Shown: one piece after another, positions 28,036 to 35,437 of the stretch
Layout: each line of letters starts with the position of its first letter
How positions within the stretch are numbered: position 1 is the stretch's first letter
IMG/VR virus record: IMGVR_UViG_3300022665_000250
Coordinates: 1 to 42,992 of that record
Length of the DNA: 42,992 nt
Origin: a virus
Strand: one strand, 5' to 3'
Notes under the pieces: model-generated
Seen by the model: only the letters and a program-made list of their open reading frames with translations
Told to the model about the DNA's origin: nothing
Database searches by the model: none
Translations under genes and position numbers: made by a program

Positions 28036-28290
28036 TTAGCCGTCGCCGGAGCCGTCGCCGTAGCCGGAGCCGTAGCCGGAGCCGTCGCCGTAGCCGGAGC
28101 CGTCGCCGTAGCCGGAGCCGTAGCCGTCGCCGTAGCCGTCGCCGTCGCCGGAGCCGTAGCCGGAGCCGTCGCCGTAGCCGGAGCCGTAGCCGTCGCCGTA
28201 GCCGTCGCCGTAGCCGGAGCCGTAGCCGTAGCCGTAGCCGTCGCCGTTATGCAGGCTCACATCAAAAGCGCATAAACTAATTGACTTCAT
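28036..28290 (-). CDS. dipeptide-repeat protein: 15-aa head + G(XG)34, X = Asp(11)/Tyr(14)/Ser(9)
   Basis: The ATG has GGGAG 9 nt upstream and overlaps the end of the upstream gene by 14 nt. It is co-oriented with the operon. Gly is always GGC and X is always GAC/TAC/TCC. Confidence 0.55.
   Translation of the reverse strand: MKSISLCAFDVSLHNGDGYGYGYGSGYGDGYGDGYGSGYGDGSGYGSGDGDGYGDGYGSGYGDGSGYGDGSGYGSGYGDGSGDG
28039..28245. repeat. 34.5 tandem hexamers GCCGNN (NN = TC/GA/TA) on the plus strand
   Basis: Read directly from the sequence. All six frames lack stops, so the ORF track reports ORFs in several frames. Confidence 0.95.
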
Positions 28291-28657
28291 GTATCGGCGC
28301 TCCCTGAATCGATAATCTCGCCATTTCTGTTATGCTTAAAATCTCGCAAGATTCAGGCAATACTACCGTCTGAACCGACGCGGGAATCTTTGATTTATCA
28401 TGCACAATGCCATTTTCAGCGACACCAGATAGGCTATGAGAGTTATTTGCACATTTCCAATAGTAGAGCCTCCGCGAATTAGTTAATACTACCTCGCGCC
28501 CCTCGTAGCTCTTCAGATATCCGGCATGAACACCAGCATCACGACATCGAACAATGACGTATTCTCCGATCATCTCTTTTTCTTTCGGCTGCGGCTGTTC
28601 GGATTTTTCGTCGTCTATAAGCATCATTATTAACCTTTCTAACAATTCTGTTTTCAT
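28277..28657 (-). CDS. conserved phage protein of unknown function (SRRLYYW...LSGVAENG type), first gene of the early-left operon
   Basis: 126 aa. The motif order VIVRCRDAGVHAGYL...EVVLTNSRRLYYW...SLSGVAENG recalls a widespread phage DUF. Confidence 0.6.
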   Translation of the reverse strand: MKTELLERLIMMLIDDEKSEQPQPKEKEMIGEYVIVRCRDAGVHAGYLKSYEGREVVLTNSRRLYYWKCANNSHSLSGVAENGIVHDKSKIPASVQTVVLPESCEILSITEMARLSIQGAPIHEVN

Positions 28658-29851: not shown

Positions 29852-29895
29852 ATTACCAATAAATTACCAGTAAATTACCAGTAAATTAAGGGTGA
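29852..29895 (+). repeat. array A: 11-bp phased tandem repeats ATTACCA(A/G)TAA x3 plus a degenerate unit ATTAAGGGTGA containing the SD
   Basis: Read directly; units start at 29852, 29863, 29874 and 29885. A related copy, ATAATTACCCGG, is at 29827. Confidence 0.9.
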
Positions 29896-30308: not shown

Positions 30309-30319
30309 GAGGAAACGAG

Positions 30320-30384
30320 ATAATTACCGGATAATTACCGGATAATTACCGGATAATTACCGATAAATCACTGATAAATTAAGG
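30320..30384 (+). repeat. array B: 11-bp phased tandem repeats ATAATTACCGG x3 plus three degenerate units ending ATAAATTAAGG (SD)
   Basis: Read directly; units start at 30320, 30331, 30342, 30353, 30363 and 30374. Confidence 0.9.
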
Positions 30385-30740: not shown

Positions 30741-31355
30741 ATGAGTTTTGAAGCGGCCGCTTGGGCCATAAAACAAAAAACAAACAGGCCTATTGAAAAA
30801 TTAATTCTTATCGCTTTATGCGACTGCTATAACAAAAACAATTCAAGATGTGACCCGTCAATAATTTATCTCTCGGAAGTGGCGATATGTTCCGAGCGAC
30901 AGGCGACTAGATCTATCAACCAATTAGTTATCCAGGGATTTATATCTGCCTGTAGAAAAACAGGCAGGAGAACCAATTACAATATCAACTTAACCCCTGA
31001 CTCACAGTCACCCCACCCCCGACTCACAGTCACCCCCACCCCTGACTCACAGTCCAAAACCCCTGACTCACAGTCACCCGAACCAGTAAGAACCATTAAT
31101 TTAACCAGTAAGATACCGATACCAGATTTTATTGATAAAAAAATGTGGTCTGATTTTTTGGAGATGCGGGGAAAGAAAAAGAACTCGGATGTTTCTTTGA
31201 AGCGGATCATCAACGAACTAACGAAATTTGAAGCTAAAGGGATGGATGTGAACCAGGTGCTCAATAACTCAATCATGAGCTCATGGATCGGTGTCTTCCC
31301 AATAAAAGAATTCAAATTAGACAATCAACCACCTGCGAGGATTGTAGGCCGATGA
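30741..31355 (+). CDS. replication initiator (lambda O-like, N-terminal winged-HTH) containing the origin iterons
   Basis: The N-terminus (AAAWAIKQKTNRPIEKLILIALCDCYN...IYLSEVAICSERQATRSINQL) looks like HTH_36-type replication proteins. It lies upstream of DnaB with an ATGA overlap and has an internal 4x repeat. Confidence 0.6.
   Translation: MSFEAAAWAIKQKTNRPIEKLILIALCDCYNKNNSRCDPSIIYLSEVAICSERQATRSINQLVIQGFISACRKTGRRTNYNINLTPDSQSPHPRLTVTPTPDSQSKTPDSQSPEPVRTINLTSKIPIPDFIDKKMWSDFLEMRGKKKNSDVSLKRIINELTKFEAKGMDVNQVLNNSIMSSWIGVFPIKEFKLDNQPPARIVGR
30994..31113. repeat. putative origin: four ~20-bp iterons CCCCTGACTCACAGTCACC(C) at ~22-bp spacing, then AT-rich DNA with 2x AACCAGTAAGA
   Basis: GACTCACAGTC cores at 30999, 31021, 31044 and 31065, each with GACT/AGTC dyad symmetry. 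AACCAGTAAGA occurs at 31081 and 31103. The architecture resembles ori-lambda inside gene O. Confidence 0.55.
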
Positions 31356-34599: not shown

Positions 34600-34944
34600 A
34601 TGAAACCAGAAACAATGATGATTGATGATGTGAAATACGTGCGCGAAGACTCAATAAAAGTATTCGCGCTGCCTGATGGAGATTTTTCTCCTTGGGAAAC
34701 AGGCGAGGAATATCACATCGAAACAGCAACTAAGTATTATCTCGGAAGATTGATACTGGTCACAGACAAGGAATTAGTTGTTGACGGTGCTTCATGGGTG
34801 GCCGATACAGGTAGATTTAACGAGTACCTGAGCGGAAGCAACCCAAGCGAGAATGAACCCTACCAAAAAGGATCGGCGCTGATAATTAGTAGAGGCGCAT
34901 TGGTCTCGGCAGTTAAACGCGAAATCATAATTGAGGTTATCTGA
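34600..34944 (+). CDS. conserved phage protein of unknown function (ASWVADTGRF type)
   Basis: 114 aa. YYLGRLILVTDKELVVDGASWVADTGRFNEYLSG...EPY recalls a widespread phage DUF. Confidence 0.6.
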   Translation: MKPETMMIDDVKYVREDSIKVFALPDGDFSPWETGEEYHIETATKYYLGRLILVTDKELVVDGASWVADTGRFNEYLSGSNPSENEPYQKGSALIISRGALVSAVKREIIIEVI

Positions 34945-35180
34945 TGAACGCCGTGATGCTGCGAGAAGGTTATTTAGGGTCTGGGTCTAGGTCTTGGTCT
35001 TGGTCTGGGTCTAGGTCTGGGTCTAGGTCTGGGTCTAGGTCTGGGTCTAGGTCTTGGTCTGGGTCTGGGTCTGGGTCTGGGTCTAGGTCTGGGTCTAGGT
35101 CTGGGTCTAGGTCTTGGTCTGGGTCTAGGTCTGGGTCTAGGTCTTGGTCTTGGTCTGGGTCTGGGTCTAGGTCTGGGTAA
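34944..35180 (+). CDS. dipeptide-repeat protein: 11-aa head + (XS)33-G, X = Gly(17)/Arg(11)/Trp(6)
   Basis: The ATG overlaps the upstream stop (TGATG), with GAGG 7 nt upstream. It is co-oriented with the operon and followed by a terminator. The frame choice remains uncertain because other frames are also open. Confidence 0.5.
   Translation: MNAVMLREGYLGSGSRSWSWSGSRSGSRSGSRSGSRSWSGSGSGSGSRSGSRSGSRSWSGSRSGSRSWSWSGSGSRSG
34977..35177. repeat. 33.5 tandem hexamers NGGTCT (N = G 17, A 11, T 6, C 0)
   Basis: Read directly from the sequence. Four consecutive GGGTCT units at 35061-35084 form a G3N3 quadruplex motif on the plus strand. Confidence 0.95.
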
Positions 35181-35183
35181 ACG

Positions 35184-35210
35184 AAAAAGCCCCAAATTAA
35201 TGGGGCCTTT
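35184..35210 (+). terminator. rho-independent terminator
   Basis: AAAAA-GCCCCA-aattaa-TGGGGC-CTTTAA, starting 4 nt after the stop of the repeat ORF. Confidence 0.55.
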
Positions 35211-35318
35211 AAGTTGCAATTGAGGTTAATCAAGTGCAGTATGTCGAGTAACGAACTAGAACACGAGAAGAATCATACTGATGTTCTTTCAGTATATCAA
35301 CAAAAATTTCTTATCGTG

Positions 35319-35362: not shown

Positions 35363-35437
35363 AAAGGAGAGTGCACAACGGTGGTAGTGCAGCGGGGCGC
35401 ACCCGTACTGGAGGTTCGAATCCTCCCTCTTTTTCCA
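35363..35437 (+). tRNA. tRNA-like gene with canonical acceptor, D and T arms and encoded CCA, but a truncated anticodon arm (possible pseudogene or decoy)
   Basis: Acceptor AAAGGAG/CTCTTTT (one G.T pair). D arm TGCAC-N10(GG)-GTGCA. T arm GGAGG-TTCGAAT-CCTCC. Discriminator T followed by CCA. The anticodon region CGGGG-CGCA-CCCG is about 4 nt too short for a 5-bp stem plus 7-nt loop. Confidence 0.45.

Follow-up and report, generated by a model that had tools for sequence, protein, structure and literature searches.

A widespread two-gene module of tailed phages pairs a predicted Sm-like protein with a putative (X-Ser)n repeat microprotein

Introduction

Eukaryotic Sm and LSm proteins carry RG/RGG tails in cis, and SmD1, SmD3, SmB and LSm4 combine a small Sm-fold beta-barrel with a disordered, Arg/Gly-rich dipeptide-repeat segment. 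The phage locus described here likewise joins a predicted small beta-barrel to such a repeat; however, the repeat is encoded by a gene of its own, complete with a conserved head, instead of forming a C-terminal tail, its units are X-Ser with Trp instead of RG, the barrel has no Pfam LSM match, and the phages belong to uncultured hosts. The LSm domains of Edc3 and LSm14 dock short peptide motifs, and both are among the Foldseek matches of the protein modelled in this work.

Other known repeats resemble the locus in part. The GGGGCC repeat of C9orf72, whose pathological expansion undergoes repeat-associated non-AUG translation, is also a hexanucleotide array with several dipeptide-repeat frames and Arg-rich products, whereas the frame considered here starts at an AUG, is apparently the single one under selection, belongs to a conserved gene of bacterial viruses and is heteropolymeric at X. 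The Ser-Asp repeats of staphylococcal Sdr/Clf proteins and the Gly-X repeats of silk-fibroin type are also long, strictly alternating dipeptides encoded by short DNA repeats, but they occur as domains within large proteins that are secreted or structural, and the likeness is compositional only; unlike Sdr/Clf, the microgene encodes no signal peptide or wall anchor. The trpL and pheL leaders are also short ORFs enriched in certain codons and followed by a hairpin, with ~14-30 codons as against 78 here, where the terminator is not conserved and the product itself appears to be under selection. In Borg and other mobile elements, rapidly evolving, frame-preserving tandem repeats are selected to encode disordered segments (PMC9879509); those repeats reportedly arise independently in many unrelated genes, whereas the present ones form one microgene family with a conserved head and a fixed partner gene, inherited across many phage contigs.

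Results

A hexamer array within a small open reading frame

The window, that is, the whole stretch of 42,992 nucleotides analysed, is a viral contig from a metagenome assembly. Megablast searches of 50,697 phage records with 2.5 kb or 25 kb of it found nothing similar, indicating a phage without a close sequenced relative. No tRNA was predicted by ARAGORN; Rfam gave a marginal tRNA-like match, and a Phe_leader match on the opposite strand that was below threshold (28 vs 55 bits).

Tandem Repeats Finder located a repeat of period 6 at positions 34977-35178 (33.7 copies, consensus GGGTCT), which a direct count resolved into 16 GGGTCT, 11 AGGTCT and 6 TGGTCT units and a final GGG-TAA. Both analyses confirmed the claim of an earlier note on this DNA that the ORF at 34944-35180 contains an NGGTCT array in which N is never C. 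The motif GGTCTNGGTCTNGGTCT occurred 31 times in the window, as against 0 in 100 dinucleotide-preserving shuffles. The number of units is possibly imprecise, given that breaks within arrays of this kind are common in related contigs.

The microgene, taken from the ORF list (34944-35180, plus strand), encodes 78 aa: an 11-residue head, MNAVMLREGYL (MNAVMLREGYLGSGS; 34944-34976, plus strand), which is conserved in relatives, and an (X-Ser)n tail of ~33.5 NGG-TCT units by direct count (34977-35180, plus strand), with the TAA stop directly at its end. The X residues are Gly (n = 17), Arg (n = 11) and Trp (n = 6). A strongly cationic peptide had been foreseen, and the predicted 8-kDa product indeed has a pI of 12.0 and a net charge of about +10.5, with 6 Trp and 12 Arg. 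The start overlap and ribosome-binding site that had been pointed out were also found in the sequence: the ATG (34944) overlaps the TGA (34942-34944) of a 114-aa ORF at 34600-34944, and a Shine-Dalgarno-like GAGG (34933-34936, plus strand) lies 7 nt upstream. The neighbouring genes in the window are replication and nin genes. Within their synonymous families, GGG, AGG and TCT each have a share of 15-18% in the long ORFs of the window, as against 100% in the array.

Other features of the region were present in the window and were not conserved among related arrays. The G+C-rich, terminator-like hairpin that the earlier note had placed 4 nt after the stop lies 8 nt past it (35189-35206), and its T-run is weak on the plus strand (CTTTAAGTTG) and stronger on the minus strand (TTTTTCGTTT), so that it falls short of a clean terminator on the plus strand. 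A terminator-like site was found within 110 nt in 2/64 related arrays, the next ORF being less than 70 nt away in 46/64; the terminator was consequently rejected as a part of the module and regarded as phage-specific, and the class of attenuation leader peptides was rejected on the same count, despite the hairpin in the window. Two minus-strand ORFs cover the array, at 34974-35219 (a perfect PR repeat) and 34970-35233 (D-P/L/Q). The (PR)n frame, open in the window as noted earlier, is open in only 44/67 related arrays, with a product that changes between PR, PA and stop-P and a TGA wherever Ser is TCA, and the D-X frame was likewise rejected as a conserved feature across related arrays. The plus-strand (GL)n frame (+2) is also open in the window, and its product shifts among relatives (GL, GR, GA, GQ, GH). 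The quadruplex motif is indeed present, as a G3N3 x4 run at 35061-35081 that corresponds to four consecutive GGGTCT units and occurs once in the window, but a canonical G-quadruplex motif was found in only 10/67 related arrays. Finally, the array RNA could form long G.U-rich hairpins (MFE z = -4.8), but its centroid fold is unstructured, and RNA self-structure was rejected as a conserved feature. Units of the NGGTCA or NGGAGC type are expected to lack self-pairing, as read from the unit sequence without folding.

Conservation and selection of the microgene in related phages

Homology to the 114-aa protein was the sole criterion for fetching a set of 79 viral contigs. In 71/79 loci a strict (XS)n ORF lay just downstream of the homologue, and the remaining 8/79 had the same head followed by a short, degenerate or truncated tail of Ser, Arg, Trp and Gly. 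The coupling of microgene and 114-aa gene proposed earlier was thus borne out in 79/79 loci chosen by the 114-aa protein alone, and the microgene was also carried by the 7/7 loci obtained from exact-protein look-ups. The comparison of homologous loci that the earlier note had suggested shows the XS frame kept throughout and a tail present at every locus; as to array length, contigs with 100% identical upstream genes differ in their arrays, always in frame. Degenerate arrays without strict periodicity still keep an open frame and the S/R/W/G composition. Array lengths among relatives range from ~4 to more than 50 units.

As in the window, X in the (X-Ser)n tails of relatives is mostly Arg, Gly or Trp. 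Ser is encoded by TCG (n = 1258), AGC (n = 288), TCA (n = 262) or TCT (n = 124), with one codon family per run, while the X codons are nearly always NGG (93% of Gly are GGG, and 96% of Arg are CGG or AGG). The restriction of N to G, A and T holds for the window and is a lineage quirk, since relatives encode Arg most often by CGG. The NGG bias fits rapid one-step interconversion around TGG and leaves room for a nucleotide-level constraint.

The heads share the consensus M-N-A-A-[IVM]-L-R-T-G-[FLY]-[DE] (MNAAILRTGFD-like), with an ATG start in 49/51 distinct heads and a Shine-Dalgarno-like motif upstream of 33/51. The third codon position of the head is the most variable (entropy 0.92, 0.72 and 1.65 bits at positions 1, 2 and 3). 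Among 1,727 repeat units, deviations from the modal base of the array were rare at the two synonymous sites (2.8% at position 3 and 2.7% at position 6) and reached 7.1% at position 2, whereas position 1 showed all four bases (26/32/30/12%). Because the first base varies while the synonymous sites are uniform, the amino-acid diversity at X is far above the neutral baseline, the first-base diversity being more than 20 times the synonymous one.

The XS frame thus bears the marks of a coding gene (Shine-Dalgarno motif, start codon, synonymous change, third-position variability and indels) and appears to be translated. The view that the plus-strand XS frame is the best supported was upheld: relatives all have the identical product type, whichever Ser codon family or NGG Arg codon they use, and an ATG-started head with third-position variability. 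Comparative sequence evidence therefore supports this frame as the one under selection.

In some phages up to ~15 tandem peptide genes accompany one partner gene, each copy with its own start and stop. An (XS)n ORF is already present as a called CDS in GenBank MW202573.1. In searches for a cultured example, tblastn detected the XS module in metagenomic records only and in none of the cultured phages. The XS peptide was uninformative as a protein query because of its low complexity; its sole NCBIfam matches were weak and compositional (Ser-Asp adhesin or silk-like repeats), far below the cut-offs. Among 133 flanking ORFs, a Pfam scan revealed only scattered helicase, recombination and HNH genes, and gave no functional clue, no modification enzyme and no ParA-like gene. 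On these grounds two further classes were rejected: RiPP precursors, which share the head-plus-variable-tail layout and the multi-copy genes, for want of modification enzymes among those ORFs, and ParR/omega-type repeat arrays, given the lack of a ParA-like gene nearby and a unit sequence that varies while its translation is kept.

The partner is a predicted Sm-like protein

The 114-aa partner gene (34600-34944, plus strand) belongs to a large, uncurated family: a single search returned 47 homologues, and 1,920 metagenomic clusters were counted at 50% identity (E<=1e-3). The protein has no Pfam, PHROG or NCBIfam match, none of 44 family members matches Pfam even at E<=1, and a PDB sequence search with the family profile gave nothing at E<=10. 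The AlphaFold2 model (pLDDT 83, pTM 0.64) depicts what would be a strongly bent, five-stranded antiparallel beta-sheet that resembles the Sm fold. The best 50 Foldseek matches of the model in the PDB are all Sm/LSm chains (TM-score by target ~0.7-0.8; rmsd down to 1.4 A over 74-78 columns), with E-values of only 2e-3 to 1e-2, and its matches in BFVD include phage proteins labelled DUF6948, 'Sm-like domain' and 'RNA binding protein'.

In Sm proteins, the RG of the Sm2 motif occupies the turn between the last two strands. The consensus 'VIIxRGAII' of the 114-aa family places a nearly invariant Arg98-Gly in the corresponding turn, a likeness seen by eye only, with no Sm1/Sm2 profile match. The stretch W-V-A-D-T-G-R-F is conserved as well. 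Partner domains are duplicated in tandem in three homologues (P0181, P0192 and P0309), which is suggestive of self-association. No partner-tail fusion polypeptides were found, the longer homologues being tandem domain duplications or proteins with unrelated extensions.

A sister module with DUF6948 and an acidic Gly-X peptide

The window contains a mirror-image module at 28036-28657 on the minus strand, in which a DUF6948 gene is followed by an acidic peptide gene. The 126-aa DUF6948 protein (28277-28657, minus strand) matches Pfam PF22253 with 96.3 bits (cut-off 27; E = 1.2e-27), and its model (pLDDT 92.8) is predicted to have an Sm-like fold, the best 50 PDB matches by Foldseek being all Sm/LSm. 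The 84-aa microgene (28036-28290, minus strand), which begins inside the 3' end of the DUF6948 gene, encodes the head MKSISLCAFDVSLHN and a (Gly-Asp/Tyr/Ser)n tail made of GGC-KMC hexamers, with a pI of 4.05 and a net charge of about -11.4. The sister (GX)n arrays use common codons (GGC, GAC, TAC) and, like the XS arrays, have GG every 6 nt.

A (GX)n ORF follows DUF6948 in 53/54 viral loci, as it does in the cultured phages PhiPLPE (Iodobacter), Ymer (Pectobacterium; CDS0033/0032) and NK-7 (Ralstonia), and the sister module is also present in cultured Dickeya and Vibrio phages. In PhiPLPE the ORF that accompanies gp84 is unannotated, and in NK-7 GenBank names it 'fibroin heavy chain-like protein'. 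Pfam, PHROGs and NCBIfam searches with both peptides yielded nothing or compositional noise, and PDB sequence searches with the profiles of both partners gave nothing useful.

The models of both partners show the order strand-strand-strand-helix-strand-strand, and a dipeptide-repeat microgene follows each partner gene, although the peptide is basic X-Ser with the 114-aa family and acidic Gly-X with DUF6948. Membership of the 114-aa protein in DUF6948 was rejected, as it has no PF22253 match; the sequences of the two families were not significantly similar by BLASTP or hhalign (E = 0.017, probability 2.6%), and the link between them comes from fold comparison only (BFVD). The head type follows the partner: MNAAILRTGFD-type heads go with the 114-aa family, acidic heads with DUF6948, and basic heads (MIRGKKQKW, MITKRTKWRR) with a distantly related 88-aa partner family. 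Co-occurrence of the basic and acidic modules as a rule was rejected, since no XS module was found in the sequence covered on each side of DUF6948, up to 10 kb, in 53 loci (0/53); the two modules are directly adjacent in two loci (L167 and L175) and share one further contig.

Discussion

We consider, with moderate confidence, that the ORF at 34944-35180 is a genuine microgene of a two-gene module with an Sm-like partner, and that its product probably acts on nucleic acid. The conservation of the gene pair, the coding signature of the head and the in-frame arrays counted for this reading. The microgene would be translated from its own ATG, coupled to the upstream stop, as part of a module expressed from the early (replication/nin) region of environmental tailed phages. 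To judge from its sequence, the product is probably a disordered, fast-evolving microprotein that works with the Sm-like partner on nucleic acid, with a conserved 11-residue head and a basic tail bearing Ser at every second residue. The tail would evolve through slippage of whole hexamers, which keeps the frame and leaves synonymous sites uniform within an array while length and order change quickly, and selection would maintain the Ser alternation and the mixed Arg/Trp/Gly composition.

As to function, we infer that the head may be a short linear motif docking on the partner, which is probably oligomeric and would thereby be decorated in trans with multivalent Arg/Trp/Gly/Ser tails; these could have RNA or single-stranded DNA as ligands in early infection and perhaps also promote condensation. 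The DUF6948 and (Gly-Asp/Tyr/Ser)n pair may be the same design realised a second time, in acidic form. Up to ~15 tandem peptide genes per partner gene, as seen in some phages, would be odd for a simple 1:1 complex. A more general proposal is tentative and, in our judgement, rather doubtful: that tailed phages possess a widespread class of 'split Sm' modules, in which an Sm-like scaffold is armed in trans, via the docking head, with one or many hypervariable dipeptide-repeat microproteins, basic or acidic, forming multivalent nucleic-acid-binding assemblies or condensates early in infection. These would be the bacterial-virus counterpart of eukaryotic Sm/LSm proteins and their RG/RGG tails; selection would keep the tail composition diverse, while the length would evolve by slippage.

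The peptide could instead be a cationic, Trp/Arg-rich effector (membrane-active, toxic, or an anti-defence decoy), with the Sm-like protein as its chaperone, neutraliser or delivery factor, and its rapid turnover and gene amplification would then mirror an arms race. We regard this as unlikely. The net charge of +10.5, pI of 12, 6 Trp and 12 Arg are what such an effector would have, and the hypervariability of the array between otherwise identical contigs, the tandem paralogues (up to ~15) and the position among early accessory genes point in the same direction. However, the alternating Ser allows no obvious amphipathic helix, the locus has no signal peptide, lysis-cassette context or immunity-like membrane protein, and the acidic sister peptide (-11) shares the architecture yet cannot be a cationic membrane peptide.

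It is quite improbable that the tail is a neutral, frame-preserving microsatellite, its composition a slippage by-product of a founder hexamer, and that only the head, or translation through the region, matters. Near-uniform synonymous sites within each array, lengths spanning ~4 to more than 50 units, and X codons limited to the NGG neighbourhood are consistent with that idea. Against it, independent TCN and AGC arrays converge on X-Ser with an Arg/Trp/Gly mix, the first-base diversity at X exceeds the synonymous baseline more than 20 times, degenerate arrays retain the frame and composition, and a tail is present in 79/79 loci.

A small-protein gene beside short direct repeats is the layout of plasmid centromeres of ParR type, and the array might act as nucleic acid, that is, as a DNA centromere or operator with binding sites for the small protein beside it, a G-quadruplex, a recombination hot spot or an RNA ligand with GG at period 6 wrapping the Sm-like ring, with the ORF incidental or dual-use. 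Besides this layout, the GG every 6 nt in both XS and GX arrays and the one G3N3 x4 run in the window would agree with such a role, which is nonetheless very improbable: the unit DNA varies (NGGTCG, NGGTCA, NGGTCT, NGGAGC) while the translation is kept, the head has a coding signature, the array ends in an in-frame stop, tandem copies have their own starts and stops, only 10/67 arrays contain the quadruplex motif, and the neighbourhood contains no partition gene, ParA-like or other. That the ORF is a regulatory leader, whose 34 rare NGG codons before the hairpin couple nin-region readthrough to translational capacity, is scarcely credible, since the codon usage (15-18% against 100%), the hairpin 8 nt past the stop and the folding potential of the array RNA (z = -4.8) are outweighed by the scarcity of terminator-like sites after related arrays (2/64) and the proximity of the next ORF (46/64), the weak plus-strand T-run and unstructured centroid in the window, and the common codons of the sister GX arrays.

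The module of a 114-aa protein and an XS microgene is widespread and apparently undescribed: literature searches by motif strings, DUF6948, phage dipeptide or hexanucleotide repeats and Sm-like low-complexity proteins found neither it nor the DUF6948/GX module described anywhere. If the microgene reading is true, many phage genomes contain, as a conserved part under selection, a kind of gene that annotation pipelines usually overlook or misname, with a partner family of ~1,900 clusters at 50% identity that has no curated model. In bacterial viruses, the module would also be a natural case of a folded scaffold whose low-complexity tail comes from a separate gene, and a simple system for studying how Arg/Trp/Gly/Ser or Gly/Tyr/Asp repeats act in bacteria (nucleic-acid binding, condensation, host takeover or anti-defence). 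Since the sister module is present in cultured Pectobacterium, Iodobacter, Ralstonia, Dickeya and Vibrio phages, the idea is directly testable. The mode of evolution is unusual, combining hexamer slippage and uniform synonymous sites with apparent selection for diversity at one codon position, and contigs of viral metagenomes frequently break at such arrays.

Array and reading frame in the window

The NGGTCT array claimed in the earlier note proved to be real: Tandem Repeats Finder recovered 33.7 copies of a 6-base unit (consensus GGGTCT) at 34977-35178, a direct count gave GGGTCT 16 times, AGGTCT 11 times and TGGTCT 6 times before a final GGG-TAA, and three consecutive units (GGTCTNGGTCTNGGTCT) occurred 31 times in the window vs 0 in 100 shuffles. 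This unit count should be treated as approximate, because many related contigs end inside the array. The array forms the tail of the XS microgene (34944-35180, plus strand), which encodes the head MNAVMLREGYL followed by (X-Ser)n, a product of 8.0 kDa with a pI of 12.0 and a charge of +10.5. As claimed, the ATG shares a base with the stop codon (TGA) of the 114-aa ORF (34600-34944, plus strand) and is preceded by GAGG 7 nt upstream, and the minus-strand PR ORF and the G3N3 x4 run (35061-35081) are present over the array. A D-X ORF is also open on the minus strand. The proposed terminator hairpin also lies downstream, although its G+C stem had to be corrected to 35189-35206 and its T-run is weak on the plus strand and stronger on the minus strand.

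The window is an entire JGI metagenome contig (42,992 bases, 44% G+C) of a lambdoid-style phage without close sequenced relatives, in which genes for an O-like initiator, a DnaB helicase and an endonuclease lie upstream of the cassette and a NinB-like gene lies downstream.

Conservation of the plus-strand product

The 114-aa protein had 47 metagenomic homologues, and in all the contigs retrieved through them (7/7) the gene was followed by a small ORF with an NGG-TCN array and a similar head (MNAVMLREGYL, MNAAQMRVGYE, MNACILRTGFD or MNISALRVGLD). For a wider sample, similarity to the 114-aa protein was the sole criterion; IMG/VR gave 243 relatives, from which 79 loci were kept. A strict (XS)n ORF was found immediately 3' of the homologue in 71 of these loci, and the other eight carried the same head followed by a Ser/Arg/Trp/Gly tail that was short, degenerate or truncated by the contig, so that the gene association held in 79/79.

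Ser codons in 82 arrays were TCG (n = 1258), AGC (n = 288), TCA (n = 262) and TCT (n = 124), and some loci had all-NGG-AGC arrays (e.g. L129, L131, L142, L161, L187 and L196), indicating at the sequence level that the dipeptide is constant while the DNA unit shifts between arrays. The +2 frame product varied by array (GR, GA, GQ, GL or GH), and the minus-strand PR-type frame was open in just 44 of 67 arrays, with TGA interrupting it wherever Ser was TCA; the alternative frames are often open simply through low complexity, and their products are not conserved. The head showed the consensus M-N-A-A-[IVM]-L-R-T-G-[FLY]-[DE], an ATG start in 49 of 51 distinct heads, and a nucleotide variability of 1.65 bits at the third codon position vs 0.92 and 0.72 at the others. 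Such an ORF is already a called CDS in GenBank MW202573.1 (MNAAIIRAGLDASWSWSWSWSRSRSWSWSGSRSGSRSRSGSGS). The conserved dipeptide and coding-type head, against the unconserved alternatives, therefore show that the plus-strand frame favoured earlier is correct, and the PR and GL frames raised as caveats are by-products. The XS ORF very probably encodes a microprotein that is translated and under selection, as one member of a two-gene module.

Evolution of the array

Deviation statistics cover 1,727 units in strict (XS)n runs, each unit being compared with the modal base of its own array. Deviation was 2.8% and 2.7% at the synonymous positions 3 and 6, and 7.1% at position 2. Since synonymous sites were near-uniform inside one array, yet different between arrays, the pattern is that expected when whole hexamers slip or are exchanged unequally. 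In contrast, the diversity of residues at X (Arg 695, Gly 635 and Trp 592 in the 82 arrays) far exceeded the neutral baseline of the synonymous sites, and the Arg/Gly/Trp mix appears to be maintained by selection. Almost all X codons were NGG (Gly 93% GGG, Arg 96% CGG/AGG), a bias that fits one-step interconversion around the lone Trp codon TGG, and the minor residues (Leu, Ala, Gln, Val, Lys, Glu and Met) were mostly one-step position-2 neighbours of NGG. In the strict runs, position 1 used C/G/T/A at 26/32/30/12%, and Arg was encoded by CGG (n = 452) and AGG (n = 217) in the 82 arrays; a restriction of N to G, A or T does not extend to the relatives. The absence of C at N and the rare codons, both seen in the window and the latter previously listed as a caution, are explained by this mode of evolution and are no evidence against translation.

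Contigs with 100% identical upstream genes (L122/L123 and L125/L126/L127) differed in unit number and order, always in frame, and part of this difference may be assembly noise. Many metagenomic contigs ended inside arrays (L121, L126, L127, L132, L140, L141, L154, L183, L188, L198, L200 and L201). Assemblies thus repeatedly break in dipeptide arrays, and the array lengths that they give are unreliable.

XS genes and their partner proteins

Scanning IMG/VR DNA for five GGTCTN units yielded at least 120 contigs, in which most matches were small ORFs with a short head and (XS)n, frequently repeated as tandem genes, and a few were unrelated ORFs of giant viruses. In L002, L024, L082, L089 and L118, about 6-15 paralogous XS genes stood in tandem behind a single partner gene, each complete with a conserved head and with start and stop codons of its own. 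Many XS genes were preceded by a second partner family of ~88 aa (MKKIVTVTEVEGEGL...IVYETGAF...IESFG; L032, L042, L058, L060, L109 and L119 among others), which matched the 114-aa profile weakly (E ~1e-4 to 1e-7, in a small search space). Basic heads follow this partner (MIRGKKQKW, MKRSLKQKW, MITKRTKWRR), so head type tracks partner family.

The 114-aa family, which has no model in Pfam, PHROG or NCBIfam, comprised, at 50% identity, 1,920 clusters under a cut-off of E<=1e-3 and 1,309 under E<=1e-10, and in genome collections it occurred only in metagenome-assembled bins, from many phyla. The best 50 PDB matches of its AlphaFold2 model (pLDDT 83) were all Sm/LSm chains, with TM-scores by target of ~0.7-0.8, rmsd down to 1.4 A and E of only ~1e-2. 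Among predicted viral structures, the matches included a Rheinheimera phage protein (E = 2.7e-5), several 'DUF6948 domain-containing' proteins, one 'Sm-like domain' and one 'RNA binding protein'. W66 and G71 were invariant in the family alignment, inside W-[VI]-A-D-T-G-R-F, and the nearly invariant R98, followed by Gly, lay at the turn joining the last two strands of the model, which is the position of the 'RG' of the Sm2 motif in Sm proteins. Membership in LSM or DUF6948 was not demonstrable from sequence. The domain was tandemly duplicated in one polypeptide of ~200-220 aa in the homologues P0181, P0192 and P0309, and none of the homologues proved to be fused to an XS tail.

A sister module with an acidic tail

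On the minus strand, the GX microgene (28036-28290) begins within the 3' end of a DUF6948 gene (28277-28657, 126 aa). It encodes 84 aa (MKSISLCAFDVSLHN followed by (Gly-Asp/Tyr/Ser)n, in GGC-KMC hexamers). The model of the DUF6948 protein (pLDDT 92.8) had exclusively Sm/LSm proteins as leading PDB matches. The pair sits in the leftward early operon, adjoining the Erf and YqaJ recombination genes. A (Gly-X)n ORF followed DUF6948 in 53 of 54 viral loci picked by DUF6948 homology. Tyr, Ser and Asp predominated at X, and the Gly codon was constant within an array and GGC, GGG, GGA or GGT across arrays. With 8.0 kDa, a pI of 4.05 and a charge of -11.4, the GX peptide of the window is a near mirror image of the XS peptide in charge.

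Three cultured phages carry this module. Its (Gly-X)n ORF lacks an annotation in Iodobacter phage PhiPLPE (NC_011142.1, L348; ~1170-1410, between gp84 and gp83), is annotated as hypothetical in Pectobacterium phage Ymer and is named 'fibroin heavy chain-like protein' in Ralstonia phage NK-7 (PP919442.1, L350; 1490-1903); the PhiPLPE and NK-7 entries are likely mis- or under-annotations of one microgene family. No XS module was found in the flanking sequence covered, up to 10 kb on each side, of the 53 DUF6948 loci. The two modules directly adjoin on the same strand in L167 (2228-3600) and L175 (3001-4400), and one further contig carries both; they are not generally linked.

Proposed mechanism and alternatives

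The XS microgene is conserved, selected and coupled to a partner with a predicted Sm-like fold. The structural matches of the 114-aa model included Edc3 and LSm14, whose LSm domains are binders of short peptide motifs, and on this basis the head would dock on the partner as a binding motif. The partner would form oligomers, and early in infection the Arg/Trp/Gly/Ser tails would bind RNA or ssDNA multivalently or bring about condensation, a role likened to that of the RG/RGG tails of SmD1, SmD3, SmB and LSm4. This combined mechanism is tentative and somewhat more likely to be wrong than right.

Plausibly, the peptide could instead be a cationic effector or act against host defence, with the partner as its chaperone, although the acidic sister module is at odds with this. 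A tail that is a neutral microsatellite is disfavoured, since arrays with different Ser codon families converge on one dipeptide pattern and X is more diverse than the baseline. Against a repeat that acts as DNA or RNA, the unit is not conserved as nucleotide sequence, no partition genes lie nearby, and the G4 motif, present in just 10 of 67 arrays, is not a conserved feature. An attenuator-type leader is opposed by the terminator, which occurred in only 2 of 64 arrays and is not a conserved part of the cassette.

A full-text search, in which coverage of the literature was incomplete, returned nothing on the XS or GX module, and neither the 114-aa protein nor the two peptides fall into a curated family. 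Closest in concept are Sm/LSm proteins with RG tails, DUF6948, whose function is not assigned, dipeptide repeats from C9orf72 hexanucleotide repeats, Ser-Asp repeats of staphylococcal adhesins, and the tandem repeats behind disordered regions in Borg elements (PMC9879509). The XS module belongs to none of them, and the function proposed for it is putative.

Other elements near the cassette

A tRNA-like element at 35365-35434 (plus strand) has a perfect GGTTCGAATCC T-loop, an Rfam tRNA score of 31.3 bits (gathering score 29) and an anticodon loop of 5 nt, without an ARAGORN call. Possible readings are a phage tRNA in decay, what is left of an attachment site, or a tRNA-like structure. The top sigma-70-like promoter match of the region reads leftward at 35300-35272 (TTGATA-17-TATGAT, 10/12), and with the hairpin it could produce a short leftward RNA of ~70-90 nt that stops just short of the XS gene's 3' end. 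Short direct repeats form three clusters (29852-29888, 30319-30377 and 30993-31079), probable operators or iterons of the immunity/replication region. Two are intergenic and made of 11-mers (ATTACCAGTAA x3.4 and GATAATTACCG x4.5), and the third, a 23-mer x4, falls within the gene for the O-like initiator.
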